This document shows, one piece after another, positions 56 to 5,678 of a stretch of DNA of 5,678 bases (position 1 is the first letter of the stretch; each line of letters starts with the position of its first letter). Source of the stretch: a virus. Below the pieces are notes generated by a model that was not told the DNA's origin, made no database searches, and was given only the letters and a program-made list of their open reading frames with translations. The stretch lies in the IMG/VR virus record IMGVR_UViG_3300045988_006698, one strand, 5' to 3'. The position numbers and the translations under genes were made by a program.

Positions 56-101
56 CATCAACGTTCGACCGAAGGTATCAAGAGGCGGGATCAGATTATA
101 A
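1..101 (+). CDS. 3' part of the same junction-spanning basic ORF8/VP8-like protein (codon phase starts at position 3, stop TAA at 99-101)
   Basis: The frame continues from 5608 across the overlap. Joined length is 16 + 101 nt = 117 nt = 38 codons plus stop. The ORF track misses it because it is shorter than 60 aa and is split by the junction. Confidence 0.65.
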   Translation, partial: AGQGDQKRFTQTAKRVKNINVRPKVSRGGIRL

Positions 102-130: not shown

Positions 131-247
131 ATGGCATTAATCAAGGTCAAGGACGTTAAGGAAGCAATTGCGCTGATGATGAGCATCCTTGAAAAGCTCG
201 ATGAAATCTACCACGCACTGAAGGACGCGGGCAAAGACAAAGAGTAA
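131..247 (+). CDS. Small hypothetical protein, 38 aa, predicted helical, no recognisable family
   Basis: ATG at 131 lies 6 nt after the G-rich SD AAAGGGGG (117-124). Translation is MALIKVKDVKEAIALMMSILEKLDEIYHALKDAGKDKE. Its stop TAA (245-247) abuts the SD of the next gene, the same packing seen for the other genes. Confidence 0.45.
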   Translation: MALIKVKDVKEAIALMMSILEKLDEIYHALKDAGKDKE

Positions 248-258
248 AGGAGAAAAAA

Positions 259-513
259 ATGAAACTGAAATTCTACTCATTCCATGATGCACTAACCAAC
301 GGCTACAGTCAGCCGTTCTTGCAGAACAACAGGGCACAGGCAGTGCGAACGGCACGATGGAAAGCCAACGAAAGCAAGCCGAGCGAAATCGAAGACATCA
401 GTCTCGTAGAACTGGGCGAGTTTGACACCGAGACCGGCTACATGAGCGAAGCAATGCCCGAGCACATCGCACGGCTCATCGACCTGAAGGAGACGGCCAA
501 TGTTAAATCCTGA
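259..513 (+). CDS. VP5: VP5-like small nonstructural protein of gokushovirus-type Microviridae (84 aa)
   Basis: SD AAGGAG (247-252) lies 6 nt before the ATG at 259. The pattern MK..FYS..D......QPF...N...A.R..........P.....L.ELGEFD.ETG matches the conserved layout I recall for ORF5/VP5 proteins. It sits directly upstream of the scaffold and capsid genes. Confidence 0.6.
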   Translation: MKLKFYSFHDALTNGYSQPFLQNNRAQAVRTARWKANESKPSEIEDISLVELGEFDTETGYMSEAMPEHIARLIDLKETANVKS

Positions 514-946
514 TAAACAGGTGCGGTACTACGGAGTACCAACCGAGAGAGTGGCAAACAATCCGGGCAGCGTGACAGCACCAACGTGGAAAGCAATCAA
601 ACGACCGAACGGCACTACAGACTACATCCAGCAGCCGGAAGAAAACACATACGAAAAAATCCAGCGAGCGGGCGAAGGCTACGACCTTGCAAGCGCAATC
701 GCACGCTTGGAAGCGGGAGACACCAGCATCAAGGCAAAAAGCATGGTATACACCGAAGGAACAGACCTCGAAAATCTGCCGAAGGATATCATGACAATGC
801 ACGAAAAGGCCGAGGCAGCAGCCGAACAGCTGGAACAGCTGAAACAGATGCAGCAGACCGAACAGCCGAAGCCGAAAGACGAACAGCCGAAGCCGAAAGA
901 GGAAGAAAAAAAAGAGGAGGTGAAGGAAAACGAACCGAAACAGTGA
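500..946 (+). CDS. VP3: Internal scaffolding protein VP3-like (148 aa) with a Lys/Glu/Pro-rich repeat tail
   Basis: SD AAGGAG (487-492) lies 7 nt before the ATG at 500, which overlaps the VP5 stop by 14 nt. Size and position immediately 5' of VP1 fit VP3. The central TYEKIQ...DLENLP...helical segment loosely resembles Chlamydia-phage-type scaffolds. Similarity was judged by eye only. Confidence 0.5.
   Translation: MLNPDKQVRYYGVPTERVANNPGSVTAPTWKAIKRPNGTTDYIQQPEENTYEKIQRAGEGYDLASAIARLEAGDTSIKAKSMVYTEGTDLENLPKDIMTMHEKAEAAAEQLEQLKQMQQTEQPKPKDEQPKPKEEEKKEEVKENEPKQ
860..901 (+). repeat. In-frame 21-nt tandem duplication (2 copies, 20/21 identical) encoding EQPKPKD/EQPKPKE in the VP3 tail
   Basis: gaacagccgaagccgaaagac (860-880) is followed by gaacagccgaagccgaaagag (881-901). 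Confidence 0.9.
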
Positions 947-971
947 AAACCATTTCGCGCAAGTGCCGCGG

Positions 972-2654
972 ATGGAACGACCGCGAAGCAAATTTGACAG
1001 AAGTCACCAGCTGTTGACGACCATCAACGAAGGTGACCTTGTACCCATCTACTGTGATGAAGTGCTTCCAGGCGATACCGCACAAGTACGACTGAACGGA
1101 CTCATTCGCATGAGCACTCCCATCTATCCTATCATGGATAACTGCTACATGGACACCTATTTCTTCTTTGTTCCGTGCCGTCTGCTGTGGGAACACTGGG
1201 AGAACATGTTCGGCGAAAACGATACAGACTACTGGGCAGAAAAAACCGAATATTCCACACCGAAAGCCGAAATCAAAAAACAAGGCATTCAAAACGGAAC
1301 AATCGGGGATTACTTCGGAATTCCAACAAAAGTACCGCTGAAAGTAAACGCGCTACCGGCACGCGCCTACGCGATGATTTACAACGAGTGGTTTAGAGAT
1401 GAAAACCTTGAAGCGCCTATAATGATAGGATACAAAAAAACTGACAAAGCAGGAAGCTCTGAAGACCCAGAAGTCGACGGGGAAAAATACGCCAATCAAC
1501 CAGAATATACTGCAACCGTATCAGAAGGTGCACTATACGCAACAAAACCCGCAAAAGCGAGTAAGTTCCACGACTACTTCACATCCTGTCTGCCCTCGCC
1601 GTTGAAAGATGACCCTATAGAAATCAGCCTGACAGGTGATGCACCAGTAGTTATGGGCAACTACAACAGCGAAACAGGCAAGGTTGACGCGTATACCATG
1701 GACACGAATATCTGGTTCAACGGAACCGGCGCGGGTGCAGGACGGGCATTCAACCGAACTTACTTGACTCCGACAAAGGGATTTCCAGCGATAGAACTGA
1801 CGGGTGTAGAAACCAACGGCGCAGAAACTGAACCAAACGGAAACAACATCACAATGGGCAATCTGTACGCCAACCTGAACAACGTGACCGCAATCAGTAT
1901 CCAGGACTTGCGAATGGCAATCGCACTGCAGCACATCTTTGAAGCAGATGCACGCAACGGCACGCGCTACCGCGAGTTCCTTTCCGGCACATGGGGCGTG
2001 ACAAGTCCGGACAGCCGGCTTCAGATTCCGGAATACATCGGCGGTCAGCGCATCGCTATCAATGTGAATCAGGTCGTACAGACGAGCCAGACGGACACGA
2101 AAACTGGACAGGCACTAGGCAATACGGCGGCATACAGCCTGACAACGTGCAGCAAGCAGATGGTGGACTATGCAGCAACTGAATACGGCTACATCATCGG
2201 TCTGGCAGTAGTACGAGTAGAGCACAGCTACCAACAGGGGCTGGCAACCAAGTGGACACGTGGCGGACGATTCACCTACTACGACCCGCGACTAGCAGCA
2301 CTGGGCGAACAGCCGGTGTATAACCGCGAAATCTATGCACAGGGCACACCTGAAGACGAAGAAATCTTCGGCTATCAGGAGGCTTGGGCGGACTACCGCT
2401 ACAAGCCTTCCTACGTAACCGGAGAAATGCGGTCTAACTTCCAAACGTCATTGGACGCATGGCACTATGCAGACGATTACAAAGAACTTCCGCGCCTCTC
2501 GGCGAAATGGATTCAAGAAGGACAACAGAACATTGACCGAACAATTGCAGTAACAAGCAACGTATCGCATCAGTTCTTGTGTGACTTCTATTTCACAGAA
2601 GACTGGTACCGCGAGATGCCTATTTACAGCATTCCCGGCATCGAAAGAATTTAA
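972..2654 (+). CDS. VP1: Major capsid protein VP1 (phiX174 F-type jelly-roll capsid, gokushovirus-like)
   Basis: This is the longest ORF. Conserved blocks are SKFDRSHQLLTTINEGDLVPIYCDEVLPGDT, FHDYFTSCLPSP, DLRMAIALQHIFEADARNGTRYREFL, RLQIPEYIGGQ and VVQTSQT. The start is uncertain: ATG at 972 is preferred, the ORF track uses GTG at 963, and neither has an SD. Confidence 0.9.
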   Translation: MERPRSKFDRSHQLLTTINEGDLVPIYCDEVLPGDTAQVRLNGLIRMSTPIYPIMDNCYMDTYFFFVPCRLLWEHWENMFGENDTDYWAEKTEYSTPKAEIKKQGIQNGTIGDYFGIPTKVPLKVNALPARAYAMIYNEWFRDENLEAPIMIGYKKTDKAGSSEDPEVDGEKYANQPEYTATVSEGALYATKPAKASKFHDYFTSCLPSPLKDDPIEISLTGDAPVVMGNYNSETGKVDAYTMDTNIWFNGTGAGAGRAFNRTYLTPTKGFPAIELTGVETNGAETEPNGNNITMGNLYANLNNVTAISIQDLRMAIALQHIFEADARNGTRYREFLSGTWGVTSPDSRLQIPEYIGGQRIAINVNQVVQTSQTDTKTGQALGNTAAYSLTTCSKQMVDYAATEYGYIIGLAVVRVEHSYQQGLATKWTRGGRFTYYDPRLAALGEQPVYNREIYAQGTPEDEEIFGYQEAWADYRYKPSYVTGEMRSNFQTSLDAWHYADDYKELPRLSAKWIQEGQQNIDRTIAVTSNVSHQFLCDFYFTEDWYREMPIYSIPGIERI

Positions 2655-2664: not shown

Positions 2665-2690
2665 AGCCCCGCAAAAGCGGGGCTATTTTT
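2665..2690 (+). terminator. Intrinsic terminator or attenuator hairpin between VP1 and VP2
   Basis: An 8-bp GC-rich stem agccccgc (2665-2672) pairs with gcggggct (2677-2684) around the loop aaaa, followed by attttt (2685-2690). It begins 11 nt after the VP1 stop. Confidence 0.65.
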
Positions 2691-2692
2691 GA

Positions 2693-3550
2693 ATGGAGAC
2701 GTTATTAAAGCTTTTGCCATCCCTCATGCAAGGGCTGGGCATGCTAACGAGCATCATAACGAGCAACAACCAAAGCAGCGCCAAGAACAGCCAAGGCTCA
2801 GGCAGCGAGACCACAACAGGCAGTGAGACCACAACAGGCAGCGTAACGGCACCACAGCAAATAGGTGCAACACAAATCAGCACGCCAACAGGTATTGCCA
2901 CATTCGGCAACCAGAGCAGCGTAAACACTGCAAACGCACTGCAAATGATGAGCGGACTGCTAAGCAACCTCGCGAATGCTGGAAGCCAAGCAAGCGCCAA
3001 GAAGTACAACAGCGCAGAGGCAGCAGCAGAACGAGCATTTCAAAAGGAAATGCGCGGAACGGCCTATCAAGATACCGTAAAGGACATGATCGCAGCGGGA
3101 ATCAATCCTATTCTGGCAGCGACCAACGGAGCAACAAGCGCACCATCGGGAGCATCTGCAAGCATTGGAAGCCAACGCTATAACCAGCAGAGCGCGCAAG
3201 CCGCAAGCGTATCCGCAATGTACGAATACGGCAACAACACGGCAGAGCTGGCGGACAAATACTTACAGCTAGCAAAACAGGCCACCAGCGCGAAACAGTT
3301 TAAGAATGCGAAAAGCTGGGAACAGGCAGCAAGCGAGCTGGCAACCTCAAGCGCAAAACAGGCACAACAGTACAGCTACGCAGCTAACAAGTTAGGTGCA
3401 GGCCTTGCGGGAGCAGGCAAAGCAGCCAAAGACGCAGTAGAAAAGGCTGGTAAAGCAGCCAAAGACGCAGTAGGAAACTTCAAAAAGTACAACCAAAGAG
3501 TGCCAATCATGCCAAACATGGACACATTCAACGCATACAGAGGAAACTAA
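2693..3550 (+). CDS. VP2: Minor capsid / DNA pilot protein VP2 (285 aa)
   Basis: It lies directly after VP1. The block AERAFQKEMRGTAYQDTVKDMIAAGINPILA matches the conserved core I recall for gokushovirus VP2. The remainder is Ala/Gln/Ser-rich low complexity with internal repeats, which is typical of pilot proteins. Confidence 0.85.
   Translation: METLLKLLPSLMQGLGMLTSIITSNNQSSAKNSQGSGSETTTGSETTTGSVTAPQQIGATQISTPTGIATFGNQSSVNTANALQMMSGLLSNLANAGSQASAKKYNSAEAAAERAFQKEMRGTAYQDTVKDMIAAGINPILAATNGATSAPSGASASIGSQRYNQQSAQAASVSAMYEYGNNTAELADKYLQLAKQATSAKQFKNAKSWEQAASELATSSAKQAQQYSYAANKLGAGLAGAGKAAKDAVEKAGKAAKDAVGNFKKYNQRVPIMPNMDTFNAYRGN
2801..2836 (+). repeat. In-frame 18-nt tandem repeat (2 copies, 17/18 identical) encoding GSETTT GSETTT
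   Basis: ggcagcgagaccacaaca (2801-2818) is followed by ggcagtgagaccacaaca (2819-2836), then ggcagc. Confidence 0.9.
3419..3473 (+). repeat. Perfect 22-nt direct repeat with 33-nt period, encoding a duplicated (A)GKAAKDAV unit near the VP2 C-terminus
   Basis: aaagcagccaaagacgcagtag occurs at 3419-3440 and again at 3452-3473. Confidence 0.9.
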
Positions 3551-3558
3551 AAAAGGAA

Positions 3559-3586
3559 GGGGGATGGCAAAACATCCCCCTTTTTT
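3559..3586 (+). terminator. Rho-independent terminator after VP2
   Basis: Stem gggggatg (3559-3566) pairs with catccccc (3573-3580) around the loop gcaaaa, followed by T6 (3581-3586). An upstream A-tract (3549-3554) is also present. Confidence 0.85.
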
Positions 3587-3612
3587 GCAACAACAATCCA
3601 AAAAATAAAGAA

Positions 3613-3793
3613 TGTGGAAAACTTGAGTTTTCAACACTTTCAACAGGTTTTCAACAACAAGTTGCACAAAGAAATTCGTCATAATGACGAACATTCAACA
3701 ATTCAACAAGTTTTCAACAAAGTTTTCAACAGGCAAAAAGACAATAAATAAACGTAGTAACGTTAAAAAAACGAGTTTTCAACACTTTCAACA
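3613..3793 (+). repeat. Iteron-like repeat array with core TTCAACA: 9 direct copies (5 as GTTTTCAACA) plus 1 inverted 9/10 copy
   Basis: GTTTTCAACA occurs at 3627, 3647, 3710, 3722 and 3775. CTTTCAACA occurs at 3637 and 3785. ATTCAACA occurs at 3693 and 3701. The inverted copy TGTGGAAAAC lies at 3613-3622. The 21-mer GAGTTTTCAACACTTTCAACA is duplicated exactly at 3625-3645 and 3773-3793. Confidence 0.9.
3675..3691. repeat. Perfect 17-nt palindrome TTCGTCAT-A-ATGACGAA inside the iteron region
   Basis: ttcgtcat (3675-3682) is the reverse complement of atgacgaa (3684-3691). This suggests a dimeric protein site or a small cruciform. Confidence 0.8.
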
Positions 3794-3812
3794 CTACTAC
3801 TACTACTACTAC
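3793..3812. repeat. Trinucleotide microsatellite (ACT/TAC) x6
   Basis: actactactactactactac begins immediately after the last iteron copy. Confidence 0.9.
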
Positions 3813-3845
3813 AACAAGTTAATATAAAAAGAAAGCGAGGTGTCA

Positions 3846-3880
3846 ACCGGCACAAGATAGACAAGGAAGCTTGTGCCGGT
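3846..3880 (+). promoter_or_regulatory. Perfect 11-bp stem-loop directly upstream of the rep (VP4) start; candidate origin hairpin or translational control element
   Basis: accggcacaag (3846-3856) pairs with cttgtgccggt (3870-3880). The 13-nt loop atagacaaggaag contains the SD-like AAGGAAG. The stem ends 7 nt before the ATG at 3888. Confidence 0.7.
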
Positions 3881-3887
3881 AACAAAA

Positions 3888-4877
3888 ATGCCATGTACAA
3901 AACCATTAGTATTTCAGATGGACACGAAAAAACCAAAACTGTGGGGAAGTCTGGAAAACCTATCAAAGCAAGGACTGCAAACGGACATCATGGACGGAAT
4001 CAAAAAAGGAAAATTCGCACTATTACCTTGTGGTAAGTGCGAGTATTGCCGCAAACAGATGGCAGACCAATGGGCAACAAGAATAGAGCTAGAAGCCAAA
4101 GAATGGGACGATGTGATTTTTCTAACACTAACGTACGATGATGACCATATTCCATACGGCGAGATAATCAAAGGCTACAGAAGCATTCAAAGCCAGACAG
4201 TGAGTAAGCGAGACGTACAGCTGTTTTTAAAACGGCTACGGAAAGCATACAAGAAGCCGATAAAATATTTCCTAGCAGCCGAATACGGCGACAGAACAAA
4301 AAGACCGCACTATCATGCAATAGTATTCGGACTAAAGCCACCGGATGCACAATGGTATAAGAACCAAAAAGGAAATAGCTATTTTAAAAGCGAATGGTTG
4401 CAAAAAATCTGGGGCAAAGGCATGATAGACTTTTCGCCAGCACAACCGGGAAGTTTTGCATACGTGGCGCAATACGTCAACAAGAAAGCCATAGGTGCAG
4501 AACAAGCGGCAAAATACTGGATGGAAGGTAGAGAACCTGAGTTTAGAATCATGTCGAAAGGCATCGGCGAAAAGTATCTAAAAGAACACAAAGATGAAAT
4601 CTTGAAAACGGATAGCATCATATGCGCGGGAGGACGCGAGAAAAGGCCTCCACGCTATTTTGATAAGATTCTAGATAAGGATACCAGCCAAGACACGGAA
4701 AGCTATTTTAGGGCACATTCTGACGAGCTGAGAGAGGTTAGGGCCAGACGCAGACGCAGCGCAATACAAAGTTTAGTCAATCTCGAACAGAACACAAGCG
4801 TAGATTACAAAACCTATCTAAACATTCAGAAAGAAAAAGACAAGCTAAAGCAAAAATGGCGTGAACCAAAAGCATGA
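3888..4877 (+). CDS. VP4: Replication initiation protein VP4 (HUH rolling-circle endonuclease, phiX174 gpA superfamily)
   Basis: Motif 1 is FLTLTY (4119-4136). The HUH motif is RPHYHAIVF (HYH at 4308-4316). The di-tyrosine motif 3 is YVAQYVNKK (4461-4487). An N-terminal CGKCEYC cysteine cluster lies at 4029-4049. I prefer ATG at 3888 over the track's GTG at 3873, which lies inside the stem. Confidence 0.9.
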   Translation: MPCTKPLVFQMDTKKPKLWGSLENLSKQGLQTDIMDGIKKGKFALLPCGKCEYCRKQMADQWATRIELEAKEWDDVIFLTLTYDDDHIPYGEIIKGYRSIQSQTVSKRDVQLFLKRLRKAYKKPIKYFLAAEYGDRTKRPHYHAIVFGLKPPDAQWYKNQKGNSYFKSEWLQKIWGKGMIDFSPAQPGSFAYVAQYVNKKAIGAEQAAKYWMEGREPEFRIMSKGIGEKYLKEHKDEILKTDSIICAGGREKRPPRYFDKILDKDTSQDTESYFRAHSDELREVRARRRRSAIQSLVNLEQNTSVDYKTYLNIQKEKDKLKQKWREPKA

Positions 4878-4934
4878 CGCGCACAGCGCTAAAAAGGAAT
4901 GGATTTAGCCGAATTCCGCTGCGCTCCATACGGC

Positions 4935-4953
4935 AAAGCGCTAAAGCGCTTTT
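4935..4953 (+). terminator. Weak terminator-like hairpin after VP4
   Basis: aaagcgc (4935-4941) pairs with gcgcttt (4946-4952) around the loop taaa, and a T-run extends to 4953. Only 4 GC pairs form, so this is marginal. Confidence 0.3.
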
Positions 4954-5008
4954 CAAACCAGAGGAGCAAAACCGACTGCTAATATATCAATTAAAATTTC
5001 AAAAAAGA

Positions 5009-5038
5009 TTGACTTTTTTCTAAAAAAAATGATAAAAT
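5009..5038 (+). promoter_or_regulatory. Sigma70-type promoter with extended -10, driving the peptidase and probably the downstream late genes
   Basis: The -35 is TTGACT (5009-5014), followed by an 18-nt spacer, then TG (5030-5031), one nt, and the -10 TAAAAT (5033-5038). An A/T-rich UP-like tract lies at 4981-5008. SD AAGGAG follows at 5051-5056. Confidence 0.7.
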
Positions 5039-5066
5039 ATAATTACAGAAAAGGAGCTTGATAAAA

Positions 5067-5459
5067 ATGCTTAAAAGCTATATCATGAACACAGATGGAA
5101 ACGTACAACTTGCAAGACACTTTAAGGTAAGGGAATTTGCCTGTAAAGACGGCAGTCCAGTAGTATTCATAGACGACTACCTATACAACGTTCTGGATAT
5201 CTTACGACATAAGCTAGGAAAGCCGGTAATCATCACCAGCGGATACAGAACACCAGAATGGAATAAAAAATGCAACGGAGCAAAATACAGCTACCACATG
5301 CGCGGTATGGCAGCAGATATCCGAGTCGATGGCATGAGCGCAAAAGAACTTGCCAAAAAACTGGATGAAATCGTCCCGGATGGATGCGGCATTATCGTAT
5401 ACAACACTTGGGTGCACTTTGATGTACGAAGTGGGAAAAAATACAGAAAGGGGATGTAA
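5067..5459 (+). CDS. Zinc D,D- or L,D-peptidase of the M15 family (Peptidase_M15_3/M15A-like, VanY/endolysin fold); putative peptidoglycan hydrolase
   Basis: The pattern FKVREFACKDG...LR..LGKPVIITSGYRTPEWNKK..GAKYSYHMRGMAADI...GCGIIVY..WVHFDVR matches the family layout. Putative Zn ligands are His (5295-5297), Asp (5316-5318) and His (5415-5417). ATG at 5067 lies 10 nt after the SD. The track's TTG at 5058 is only 1 nt from the SD and is unlikely. Confidence 0.85.
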   Translation: MLKSYIMNTDGNVQLARHFKVREFACKDGSPVVFIDDYLYNVLDILRHKLGKPVIITSGYRTPEWNKKCNGAKYSYHMRGMAADIRVDGMSAKELAKKLDEIVPDGCGIIVYNTWVHFDVRSGKKYRKGM

Positions 5460-5607
5460 AAAATGGAGCTTACCAGCATCAACTAACAATCGAATGACAA
5501 CATAACCTGGAAAAGAGAATCAGCAATGAAAACATGGAATGTGCGCGACCAGACCAAAAAAACAAATTGTGGACAAAACAGAAAAAACACATGAAGGAGT
5601 AAAACTA

Positions 5608-5678
5608 ATGGCACACAGAAGCGGAGCGGGTCAAGGCGACCAGAAACGTTTTACCCAGACTGCAAAGCGGGTAAAAAA
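5608..5678 (+). CDS. 5' part of a junction-spanning 38-aa highly basic protein (ORF8/VP8-like, analogue of the phiX174 J DNA-binding protein). The full gene is 5608-5623 joined to 1-101.
   Basis: ATG at 5608 lies 8 nt after the SD AAGGAG (5594-5599). The circular translation is MAHRSGAGQGDQKRFTQTAKRVKNINVRPKVSRGGIRL, with 10 Arg/Lys and 1 Asp. The F-x-x-TA...N...RGGIRL tail resembles the RGG-x-R-F/L C-terminus I recall for gokushovirus ORF8 proteins. Confidence 0.65.
   Translation, partial: MAHRSGAGQGDQKRFTQTAKRVK
5624..5678. repeat. Terminal direct repeat copy 2, identical to 1-55
   Basis: Same 55-mer as at the window start. Its length equals a common assembler k-mer (55), which suggests an artefact of linearising a circle. 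Confidence 0.95.

Follow-up and report, generated by a model that had tools for sequence, protein, structure and literature searches.

Phage phiX174 achieves lysis with a single gene, E, through inhibition of MraY, and the E protein is a small overprinted membrane protein without enzymatic activity. Other members of the same virus family carry genes for candidate murein peptidases. Roux et al. 2012 (PMC3394797) described M15_3 peptidases in five Gokushovirinae and six Alpavirinae from the human gut, traced their closest homologues to Faecalibacterium and to the lysis cassettes of prophages, concluded that the genes had been acquired horizontally and suggested an endolysin function; open reading frames (ORFs) of no known function lay beside five of the 11 peptidase genes, one of them on the complementary strand. 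Kirchberger et al. 2022 (PMC9239249) identified peptidases as the main lysis-associated accessory genes of microviruses and documented peptidase recombination between microvirus families, and such genes are routinely annotated in later microvirus isolates (Roseobacter, Bacteroides, Rhizobium). We analysed the peptidase gene of IMG/VR virus record IMGVR_UViG_3300045988_006698, a stretch of 5,678 nucleotides (nt; hereafter the window) that is a complete gut gokushovirus. Its gene shares with the human-gut M15_3 set of 2012 the Pfam family, the slot after the replication gene VP4, the gut origin and the proposed role, and it shows no essential difference from that set, of which it is another member. 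As a finding the gene adds little, being of a routinely annotated kind whose family, horizontal origin and probable role have been known since 2012. The useful remainder is that no recognisable membrane partner was found across 34 related genomes, whereas the tailed-phage homologues all keep one, and that the peptidase slot is an exchange hotspot behind a conserved promoter.

The gene is a real, intact M15 zinc peptidase gene. It begins with ATG and encodes a protein of 130 amino acids (aa) with an isoelectric point (pI) of 9.4; an alternative TTG start at position 5058 lies just 1 nt from the Shine-Dalgarno (SD) sequence, and all homologues begin at the ATG. The protein matches Pfam PF08291 (Peptidase_M15_3) over profile positions 2-108 of 108 (E 2.8e-22, 79.3 bits against a cut-off of 23.2), the related PF05951 (35.5 bits against 27) and PHROG 894, annotated as endolysin (E 1.8e-43). 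A sequence-only reading of the window had already recognised a 130-aa M15 peptidase with intact H/D/H zinc-ligand positions, and both halves of that description hold: the PF08291 match exceeds the gathering cut-off over the whole domain, and H77, D84 and H117, together with R61 and D119, are invariant in alignments of 8 divergent and of 62 sequences. On family knowledge, and not from coordinates, we take H117 to be the third zinc ligand. When aligned by profile to the zinc DD-peptidase 1LBU, residues H77, D84 and R61 fall on H154, D161 and R138.

Structure prediction from the single sequence was unusable (predicted local distance difference test, pLDDT, 45), and an AlphaFold2 model built from the 62-row alignment reached a pLDDT of 71 overall and 84-93 for residues 81-120. 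The best Protein Data Bank matches of this model in Foldseek were 1LBU, Shh-N, VanY, VanXYc, Ply500, LysECD7, EndoT5, RB49 endolysin and ChiX, with probabilities of 0.75-1.0 but an E-value of 1.6e-3 at best (1LBU); VanY and the T5 enzyme, with which the sequence-only reading had proposed to compare a predicted structure, were thus recovered at modest E-values. A library of viral structures (BFVD) gave 42 matches at E <= 1e-3 (best E 1.5e-12), all of them M15A-type phage proteins, including those of other microviruses. The fold is predicted to be of the LAS or hedgehog-DD-peptidase type. The LAS endolysins of T5 and RB49 (2MXZ, 23RI), the Ply500 catalytic domain (2VO9) and LysECD7 (8Q2G) share this fold class, an H...D...H zinc site and a small globular form, but they belong to the M15C or M15B/VanY subfamilies, match at Foldseek E 0.05-0.15 with 15-20% identity, and come from phages with holins. 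The closest solved structure is that of the Streptomyces albus G enzyme 1LBU (Foldseek E as above; profile E 7.8e-10). This enzyme and E. coli MepK (M15A) are cellular proteins, secreted or periplasmic, that have signal peptides and additional domains, unlike the window enzyme, whose 130 aa are essentially the catalytic domain alone.

For comparison we assembled 31 circular genomes, including the window, whose peptidases are 66-95% identical to that of the window and which fall on two backbones. Lineage A comprises 18 of the 31 genomes, the window among them, with VP1 74-85% and VP4 93-98% identical to the window's; in the 13 genomes of lineage B, VP1, VP4 and VP2 are just 37-46% identical and the peptidase 80-93%. 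Across this clade the peptidase shows a median ratio of nonsynonymous to synonymous substitution (dN/dS) of 0.17 (462 pairs), and the gene is under purifying selection. The protein is most plausibly muralytic.

Outside the microviruses, the closest homologues, at 45-50% identity, are stand-alone endolysins carried by the Faecalibacterium phages FP_oengus and Aster and by gut prophages. The FP_oengus endolysin (AUV56575) and its gut prophage homologues are likewise single-domain M15_3 proteins, of 137-138 aa, 48% identical and with the same invariant motifs. In those tailed phages and prophages, however, the gene is followed by a protein with an N-terminal transmembrane (TM) segment and by a holin (Holin_SPP1 in the prophages), and the microvirus has neither; the microvirus appears to have captured the enzyme alone, without its lysis partners. 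Two contigs of 5.1-5.5 kb (P0282, P0288) that carry FP_oengus-like peptidases and were considered as examples of recent capture by a microvirus are really tailed-phage fragments, on which tail genes occur together with an SPP1 holin and an integrase. M15 genes in Microviridae are not sporadic, contrary to the sequence-only reading: besides the reports of 2012 and 2022 (PMC3394797, PMC9239249), our searches of a protein collection yielded 1,379 clusters by single sequence and more than 7,565 by profile, and the best 120 clusters of each search lie mostly on microvirus-sized contigs.

We then asked what the genome offers to bring such an enzyme to the wall. Neither a signal peptide nor a signal-arrest-release (SAR) segment was found in the peptidase, whose N-terminus (MLKSYIMNTDGNVQLARHF) is not hydrophobic and whose maximum hydropathy score (KD19) anywhere in the protein is 0.87; its C-terminus is cationic (KKYRKGM). 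At a KD19 threshold of 1.5, no TM-like ORF or stop-to-stop segment occurs on the coding strand of the window. Extended to the 31 peptidase-bearing genomes and three peptidase-less ones, the search again returned no coding-strand TM ORF, the N-terminus of VP2 excepted, by KD19 or by a second metric with a calibration that passes Ebor Gp1 as well as all the holin controls from FP_oengus, Aster and prophages; the SPP1-type holin controls themselves reach a KD19 of just 1.25-1.86. The VP2 segment (LLKLLPSLMQGLGMLTSII) is the sole TM-like one on the coding strand; the window scores just below threshold, and two relatives reach 1.55-1.57. The absence of a hydrophobic N-terminus and of a holin, small TM ORF or E-like gene on the + strand, which the sequence-only reading had proposed for this genome, therefore holds for the window, and the absence of a TM ORF likewise for its relatives. 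The window thus contains the muralytic gene of a canonical holin-endolysin cassette, recognised by homology only, and no holin. For the lysis partners of the tailed phages, tblastn found no counterpart among the microviruses (best E 0.24), and the clade also lacks a protein such as the 45-aa TM protein Gp1 that the Rhodobacter microvirus Ebor (PMC11980548) encodes besides its own accessory murein hydrolase, Gp7, the sole microvirus hydrolase with zymogram evidence.

Individual candidates for a hidden partner fared poorly. No lysis ORF of the phiX174 E type was found in the window. The only overprinted hydrophobic stretch there, which was flagged by the second metric, lies within VP1 and is followed by a basic tail (1142-1396; stretch 1142-1201), begins right after a stop codon, has its first ATG, GTG or TTG at codon 12, varies in length between 26 and 104 codons, and is missing from lineage B and from four lineage A genomes. 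The T-rich antisense strand yields many hydrophobic ORFs by composition; one of these, a 43-codon minus-strand ORF (5614-5483) considered as a hidden holin, has its frame broken in relatives by stops and frame switches, and the spacer that contains it is missing in three genomes (L001, L006, L057). A 38-codon ORF, o38 (MALIKVKDVKEAIALMMSILEKLDEIYHALKDAGKDKE), is intact with a strong SD in 31/31 genomes, is found in 31 phage records and lacks an annotation in nearly every GenBank record. Between lineages A and B it is better conserved (68-78% aa identity) than VP1, VP2 or VP4 (37-46%). In lineage B the peptidase stop and the o38 start lie 2 nt apart or overlap, and the o38 SD falls inside the last peptidase codons. 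The hydropathy of o38 is the second highest on the coding strand; it is not a TM protein and is charged throughout save for 9 residues, and profile searches of Pfam, PHROG and NCBIfam gave no family match. As a dedicated partner of the peptidase o38 was rejected, since three genomes in which no frame encodes an M15 domain also contain it. TM ORFs are equally absent from the peptidase-less relatives, which points to some other route of lysis within the backbone; the peptidase may be a supplement to whatever route the group uses.

Expression of the gene appears to be tied to the backbone. A consensus scan found three sites with 10 of 12 matches to a sigma70/sigmaA-type promoter, and the site upstream of the peptidase is the only one of them with an extended TG and the only intergenic one, which bears out the earlier description of TTGACT, an 18-nt spacer and TG-n-TAAAAT followed by a strong SD. 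The promoter is kept in 11 relatives (11-12 of 12 matches, 20-28 nt upstream of the peptidase start). The view of promoter, SD and gene as a self-contained cassette is not supported by comparison. The peptidase-less genome L067 (MG945157) has an identical -35 block, TTGACTTTTTT, and AATATAAT at the equivalent site after VP4, and the slot behind its promoter (1470-1820) is filled by two small ORFs unrelated to the peptidase, one of them Cys-rich (CDRQCDKCPNKDISYYCSY). With the same motifs at the same place in a genome that lacks the gene, we take the promoter to belong to the backbone and the slot for the first gene behind it to be variable; the promoter probably heads the ORF8-o38-VP5-VP3-VP1-VP2 block rather than being dedicated to the peptidase. 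A terminator scan found no terminator-like site between position 5459 and ORF8, the next ones lying after VP1 and after VP2, so the peptidase gene probably opens the structural operon and probably shares a transcript with ORF8, o38 and the structural genes. The hairpin after VP2 is the likely end of the transcription unit that starts at the 5009 promoter, and this promoter with the two hairpins suggests one long transcription unit with an internal attenuator. About a dozen relatives (L009, L017, L023, L025, L028, L030, L033, L057, L001 and others) have an extra hydrophilic small ORF (MKHTYELR...), absent from the window, that lies about 160 nt upstream of the peptidase start, between the conserved GC-rich element downstream of VP4 and the peptidase, and overlaps that start; these genomes show no good promoter within 160 nt of the peptidase.

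The segment common to the window and lineage B extends from 4877, immediately past the VP4 stop, to about 5466, at 75-92% nt identity, and contains the GC-rich element, the promoter and the peptidase gene; position 4981, at which the supposed cassette had been taken to start, has no special meaning. One further genome, L070, has VP2, VP4 and VP5 91-98% identical to the window's, a peptidase in the same slot that is just 46% identical, and a divergent o38-like ORF, which demonstrates that alleles in the slot have been replaced. The peptidase of the window is 66% identical to the KX513876 allele, though the backbones are 93-97% identical, and divergent gokushoviruses use the VP4-to-VP5 slot likewise. 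The segment shared between the lineages and the L070 allele together mark the slot as an exchange hotspot, in agreement with Kirchberger et al. 2022 (PMC9239249).

On balance we consider it probable, with some reserve, that the gene encodes a cytoplasmic endolysin-type zinc peptidase, made with the structural proteins, that reaches the wall after a breach by a factor other than a holin. The small single-domain LAS-type enzyme (Peptidase_M15_3/M15A) would be made in the cytoplasm and, as an endolysin-type effector, would cut peptide bonds of the peptidoglycan when the infection ends. An ancestor of the clade would have captured the gene, without a holin, from a lysis cassette carried by tailed phages that infect gut Firmicutes; the gene has since moved among microvirus lineages as a segment of about 590 nt (4877-5466), and divergent alleles have also been swapped into the slot after the replication gene. 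As the first gene after a strong backbone promoter of the sigma70/sigmaA type, it would be expressed along with the capsids. Because the enzyme has no export signal and the genome no holin-like gene, it would act only once something else breaches the membrane, and the likeliest source of that lesion would be either the backbone route common to peptidase-less gokushoviruses or the hydrophobic N-terminus of VP2.

Several points weigh against this. There is no established way to the wall for an endolysin without a holin, SAR segment or signal sequence, and the enzyme may be dispensable, as the peptidase-less relatives presumably lyse without it. The MepK equivalog of NCBIfam, NF053624, matches only in part, at 48 bits against a required 185 and over positions 75-170 of 176, and the N-terminal 30 residues of the AlphaFold2 model are of low confidence. 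TM detection was by hydropathy only. Ebor Gp7 is no functional precedent for the M15 type, as it gives no Pfam hit and a BLASTP E-value of 0.27 against the window protein. The sequence-only reading knew of no functional study of such genes: for microvirus hydrolases in general this no longer stands, Gp7 being active in zymograms (PMC11980548), and for M15-type microvirus enzymes it does, no activity data having been found in the literature searched.

The peptidase might instead be the sole lysis effector, acting without a holin through host-dependent, signal-less export or through slow leakage and activation on de-energising of the membrane. The lack of a TM ORF in any coding-strand frame of the 31 genomes, the strong purifying selection on the peptidase and its basic character, including the cationic tail, would all fit, and some Gram-positive systems are known to export signal-less lysins without a holin. 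We nevertheless regard this as unlikely, given that no export signal of any kind was detected in the peptidase, that the tailed-phage homologues keep adjacent holins, and that peptidase-less relatives without TM lysis genes point to another route in the backbone. A membrane-active partner may also have been missed; it could be an ORF that is shorter than 20 codons or uses a non-canonical start, a gene on the minus strand, or a peptide that is amphipathic without being TM, o38 for example. The low scores of the SPP1-type controls mark the hydropathy scan as crude, o38 is conserved, comparatively hydrophobic and closely coupled to the lineage B peptidase, some relatives have the extra small ORF upstream, and ORFs beside five of 11 peptidase genes were reported in 2012 (PMC3394797), one complementary. 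We give this possibility little credence: o38 is charged and occurs in genomes without an M15 domain, the minus-strand ORF loses its frame or its whole spacer in relatives, the VP1-overprinted stretch has no preceding start codon and is missing in lineage B, and the second metric, which all holin controls pass, gave nothing conserved.

Least credible to us is a function in entry or phage competition, in which a virion-associated or released murein peptidase would open the wall for DNA delivery. Among the BFVD matches, M15A domains occur also within tail-hub or Gp5-like, virion-associated lysins of tailed phages, a point that likewise counts against an endolysin function; the peptidase is probably co-expressed with structural genes; and Ebor's unrelated Gp7 was found in virions (PMC11980548). 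The amount of Gp7 in virions was a trace only, however, and the nearest homologues of the window enzyme are free-standing lysis-cassette endolysins, not tail fusions. The protein has no capsid-binding extension, and related gokushoviruses enter without a peptidase. All of this leaves the cytoplasmic endolysin that depends on a non-holin lesion as our preferred account, and the behaviour of the enzyme with and without VP2 or o38 would bear directly on how gokushoviruses lyse cells.

The relatives of the enzyme would point to a Faecalibacterium-like Firmicutes host, and so offer a host clue for an abundant, uncultured gut virus group. An AGGAG SD precedes five of the eight genes of the window, and the -10 of the promoter is extended. 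AGGAG SDs with an extended -10 fit Firmicutes or Proteobacteria better than Bacteroidota. A scan of reference genomes with the peptidase found no relative, and with VP1 the sole match was L070 (CAVKUS010000079.1), a free 5.7-kb microvirus contig in a metagenome-assembled genome labelled 'Bacteroides sp. CAG:545'. This binning is weak as host evidence and may be wrong; a Bacteroides host sits poorly with the strong SD usage of the genes. We know of no microvirus isolate of Gram-positive-type Oscillospiraceae. A bolder proposition, which we think unlikely, is that a very large clade of gut gokushoviruses uses an endolysin without a holin, the lesion being made by a structural or backbone protein (the VP2 N-terminus in late excess, with o38 as second candidate). 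If that were true, holin-free release together with a Firmicutes-type enzyme, strong SDs and an extended -10 would imply Gram-positive-type Oscillospiraceae as hosts.

The window ends in an exact 55-nt terminal direct repeat (1-55 = 5624-5678), an assembly overlap of the kind that usually marks an assembled circle, and the genome is therefore a circle of 5,623 nt. On the circularised ORF map the + strand carries every recognisable gene (Table 1), with the peptidase between the replication gene and the ORF8-VP5-VP3-VP1 block, as first described. VP1, VP2, VP3, VP4 and VP5 were all recognised by Pfam or PHROG on one strand of a circular genome in the class of about 4.5-6 kb, as is typical of gokushoviruses. 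Two database records come closest to the window: Gokushovirinae sp. MT121961, which matches 95% of its length (88.7% nt identity), and Human gut gokushovirus KX513876, which matches 82% (88.6%). The peptidase genes of KX513876, KX513877 and KX513868 are labelled 'peptidase M15' in GenBank, and those of the MG945xxx records 'similar to peptidase'. The suggestion that the gene explains the large genome is right in part: the cassette adds about 0.4-0.6 kb, but peptidase-less relatives already measure 5.2-5.4 kb.

Table 1. Features of the window on the + strand numbering (positions in nt; the genome is circular, and ORF8 crosses the junction).
Feature	Position	Strand	Basis or remark
o38, 38-codon ORF	131-247	+	ORF map
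VP5	259-513	+	Pfam/PHROG
VP3 scaffold	500-946	+	Pfam/PHROG
VP1 (Phage_F capsid)	963-2654	+	Pfam/PHROG
Terminator-like GC-rich hairpin after VP1	2665-2684	+	Terminator scan
VP2 pilot	2693-3550	+	PHROG 18604/8742
VP2 hydrophobic N-terminal segment, residues 4-22	2702-2758	+	KD19 1.44
Palindromic GC-rich hairpin after VP2, T-run on + strand	3557-3582		Terminator scan (reported on - strand), inverted repeat, + strand sequence
VP4 replication initiator	3873-4877	+	Pfam/PHROG
Conserved GC-rich element	4877-4960		Begins directly 3' of VP4 stop; 5' end of segment shared between lineages
sigma70/sigmaA-type promoter, TTGACT, 18 nt, TG-a-TAAAAT	5009-5038	+	Consensus scan, 10/12 with extended TG
Shine-Dalgarno AGGAG	5052-5056	+	10 nt upstream of ATG; GGAG/GAGG kept in relatives
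Peptidase_M15_3 gene	5067-5459	+	Pfam PF08291, PHROG 894
First zinc-ligand motif, H77-x6-D84 (SYHMRGMAAD) codons	5295-5318	+	Invariant; aligns with 1LBU H154, D161
H117-F-D119 (WVHFD) codons	5415-5423	+	Invariant; presumed third zinc ligand and acidic residue
ORF8, 38-aa basic, J/VP8-like DNA-binding protein	5608-5678, then 56-101	+	Kept in relatives; SD AGGAG 8 nt upstream

The remaining observations concern the non-coding regions and small ORFs. A perfect 11-nt inverted repeat (ACCGGCACAAG / CTTGTGCCGGT, 3846-3880) flanks the SD-like AAGGAAG and the GTG start of VP4 and could regulate how this replication initiator is translated. Between VP2 and VP4, the non-coding region (3593-3830) contains at least five copies of the iteron-like GTTTTCAACA and a (CTA)6 run, and may be an origin or regulatory region. 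Within it, the block 3629-3825 is conserved in lineage B at 75-78% nt identity and is there inverted and directly adjoining the peptidase cassette; GTTGAAA repeats resembling those of this region are present in L067. The GC-rich element downstream of VP4 is overlapped by a 49-codon ORF (4874-5023, +) that has 47-94% similarity in relatives by tblastn, yet shows single-base indels in the nt alignment. Folded as single-stranded DNA, the element does no better than its shuffles (z = -0.03), and a structured DNA or RNA at 4877-4960 was accordingly dropped as a candidate. A seven-codon mini-ORF (MELTSIN*, 5463-5486, +) lies 3 nt past the peptidase stop, near the position at which o38 starts in lineage B, and may be a remnant of a rearrangement that put ORF8 between the peptidase and o38.

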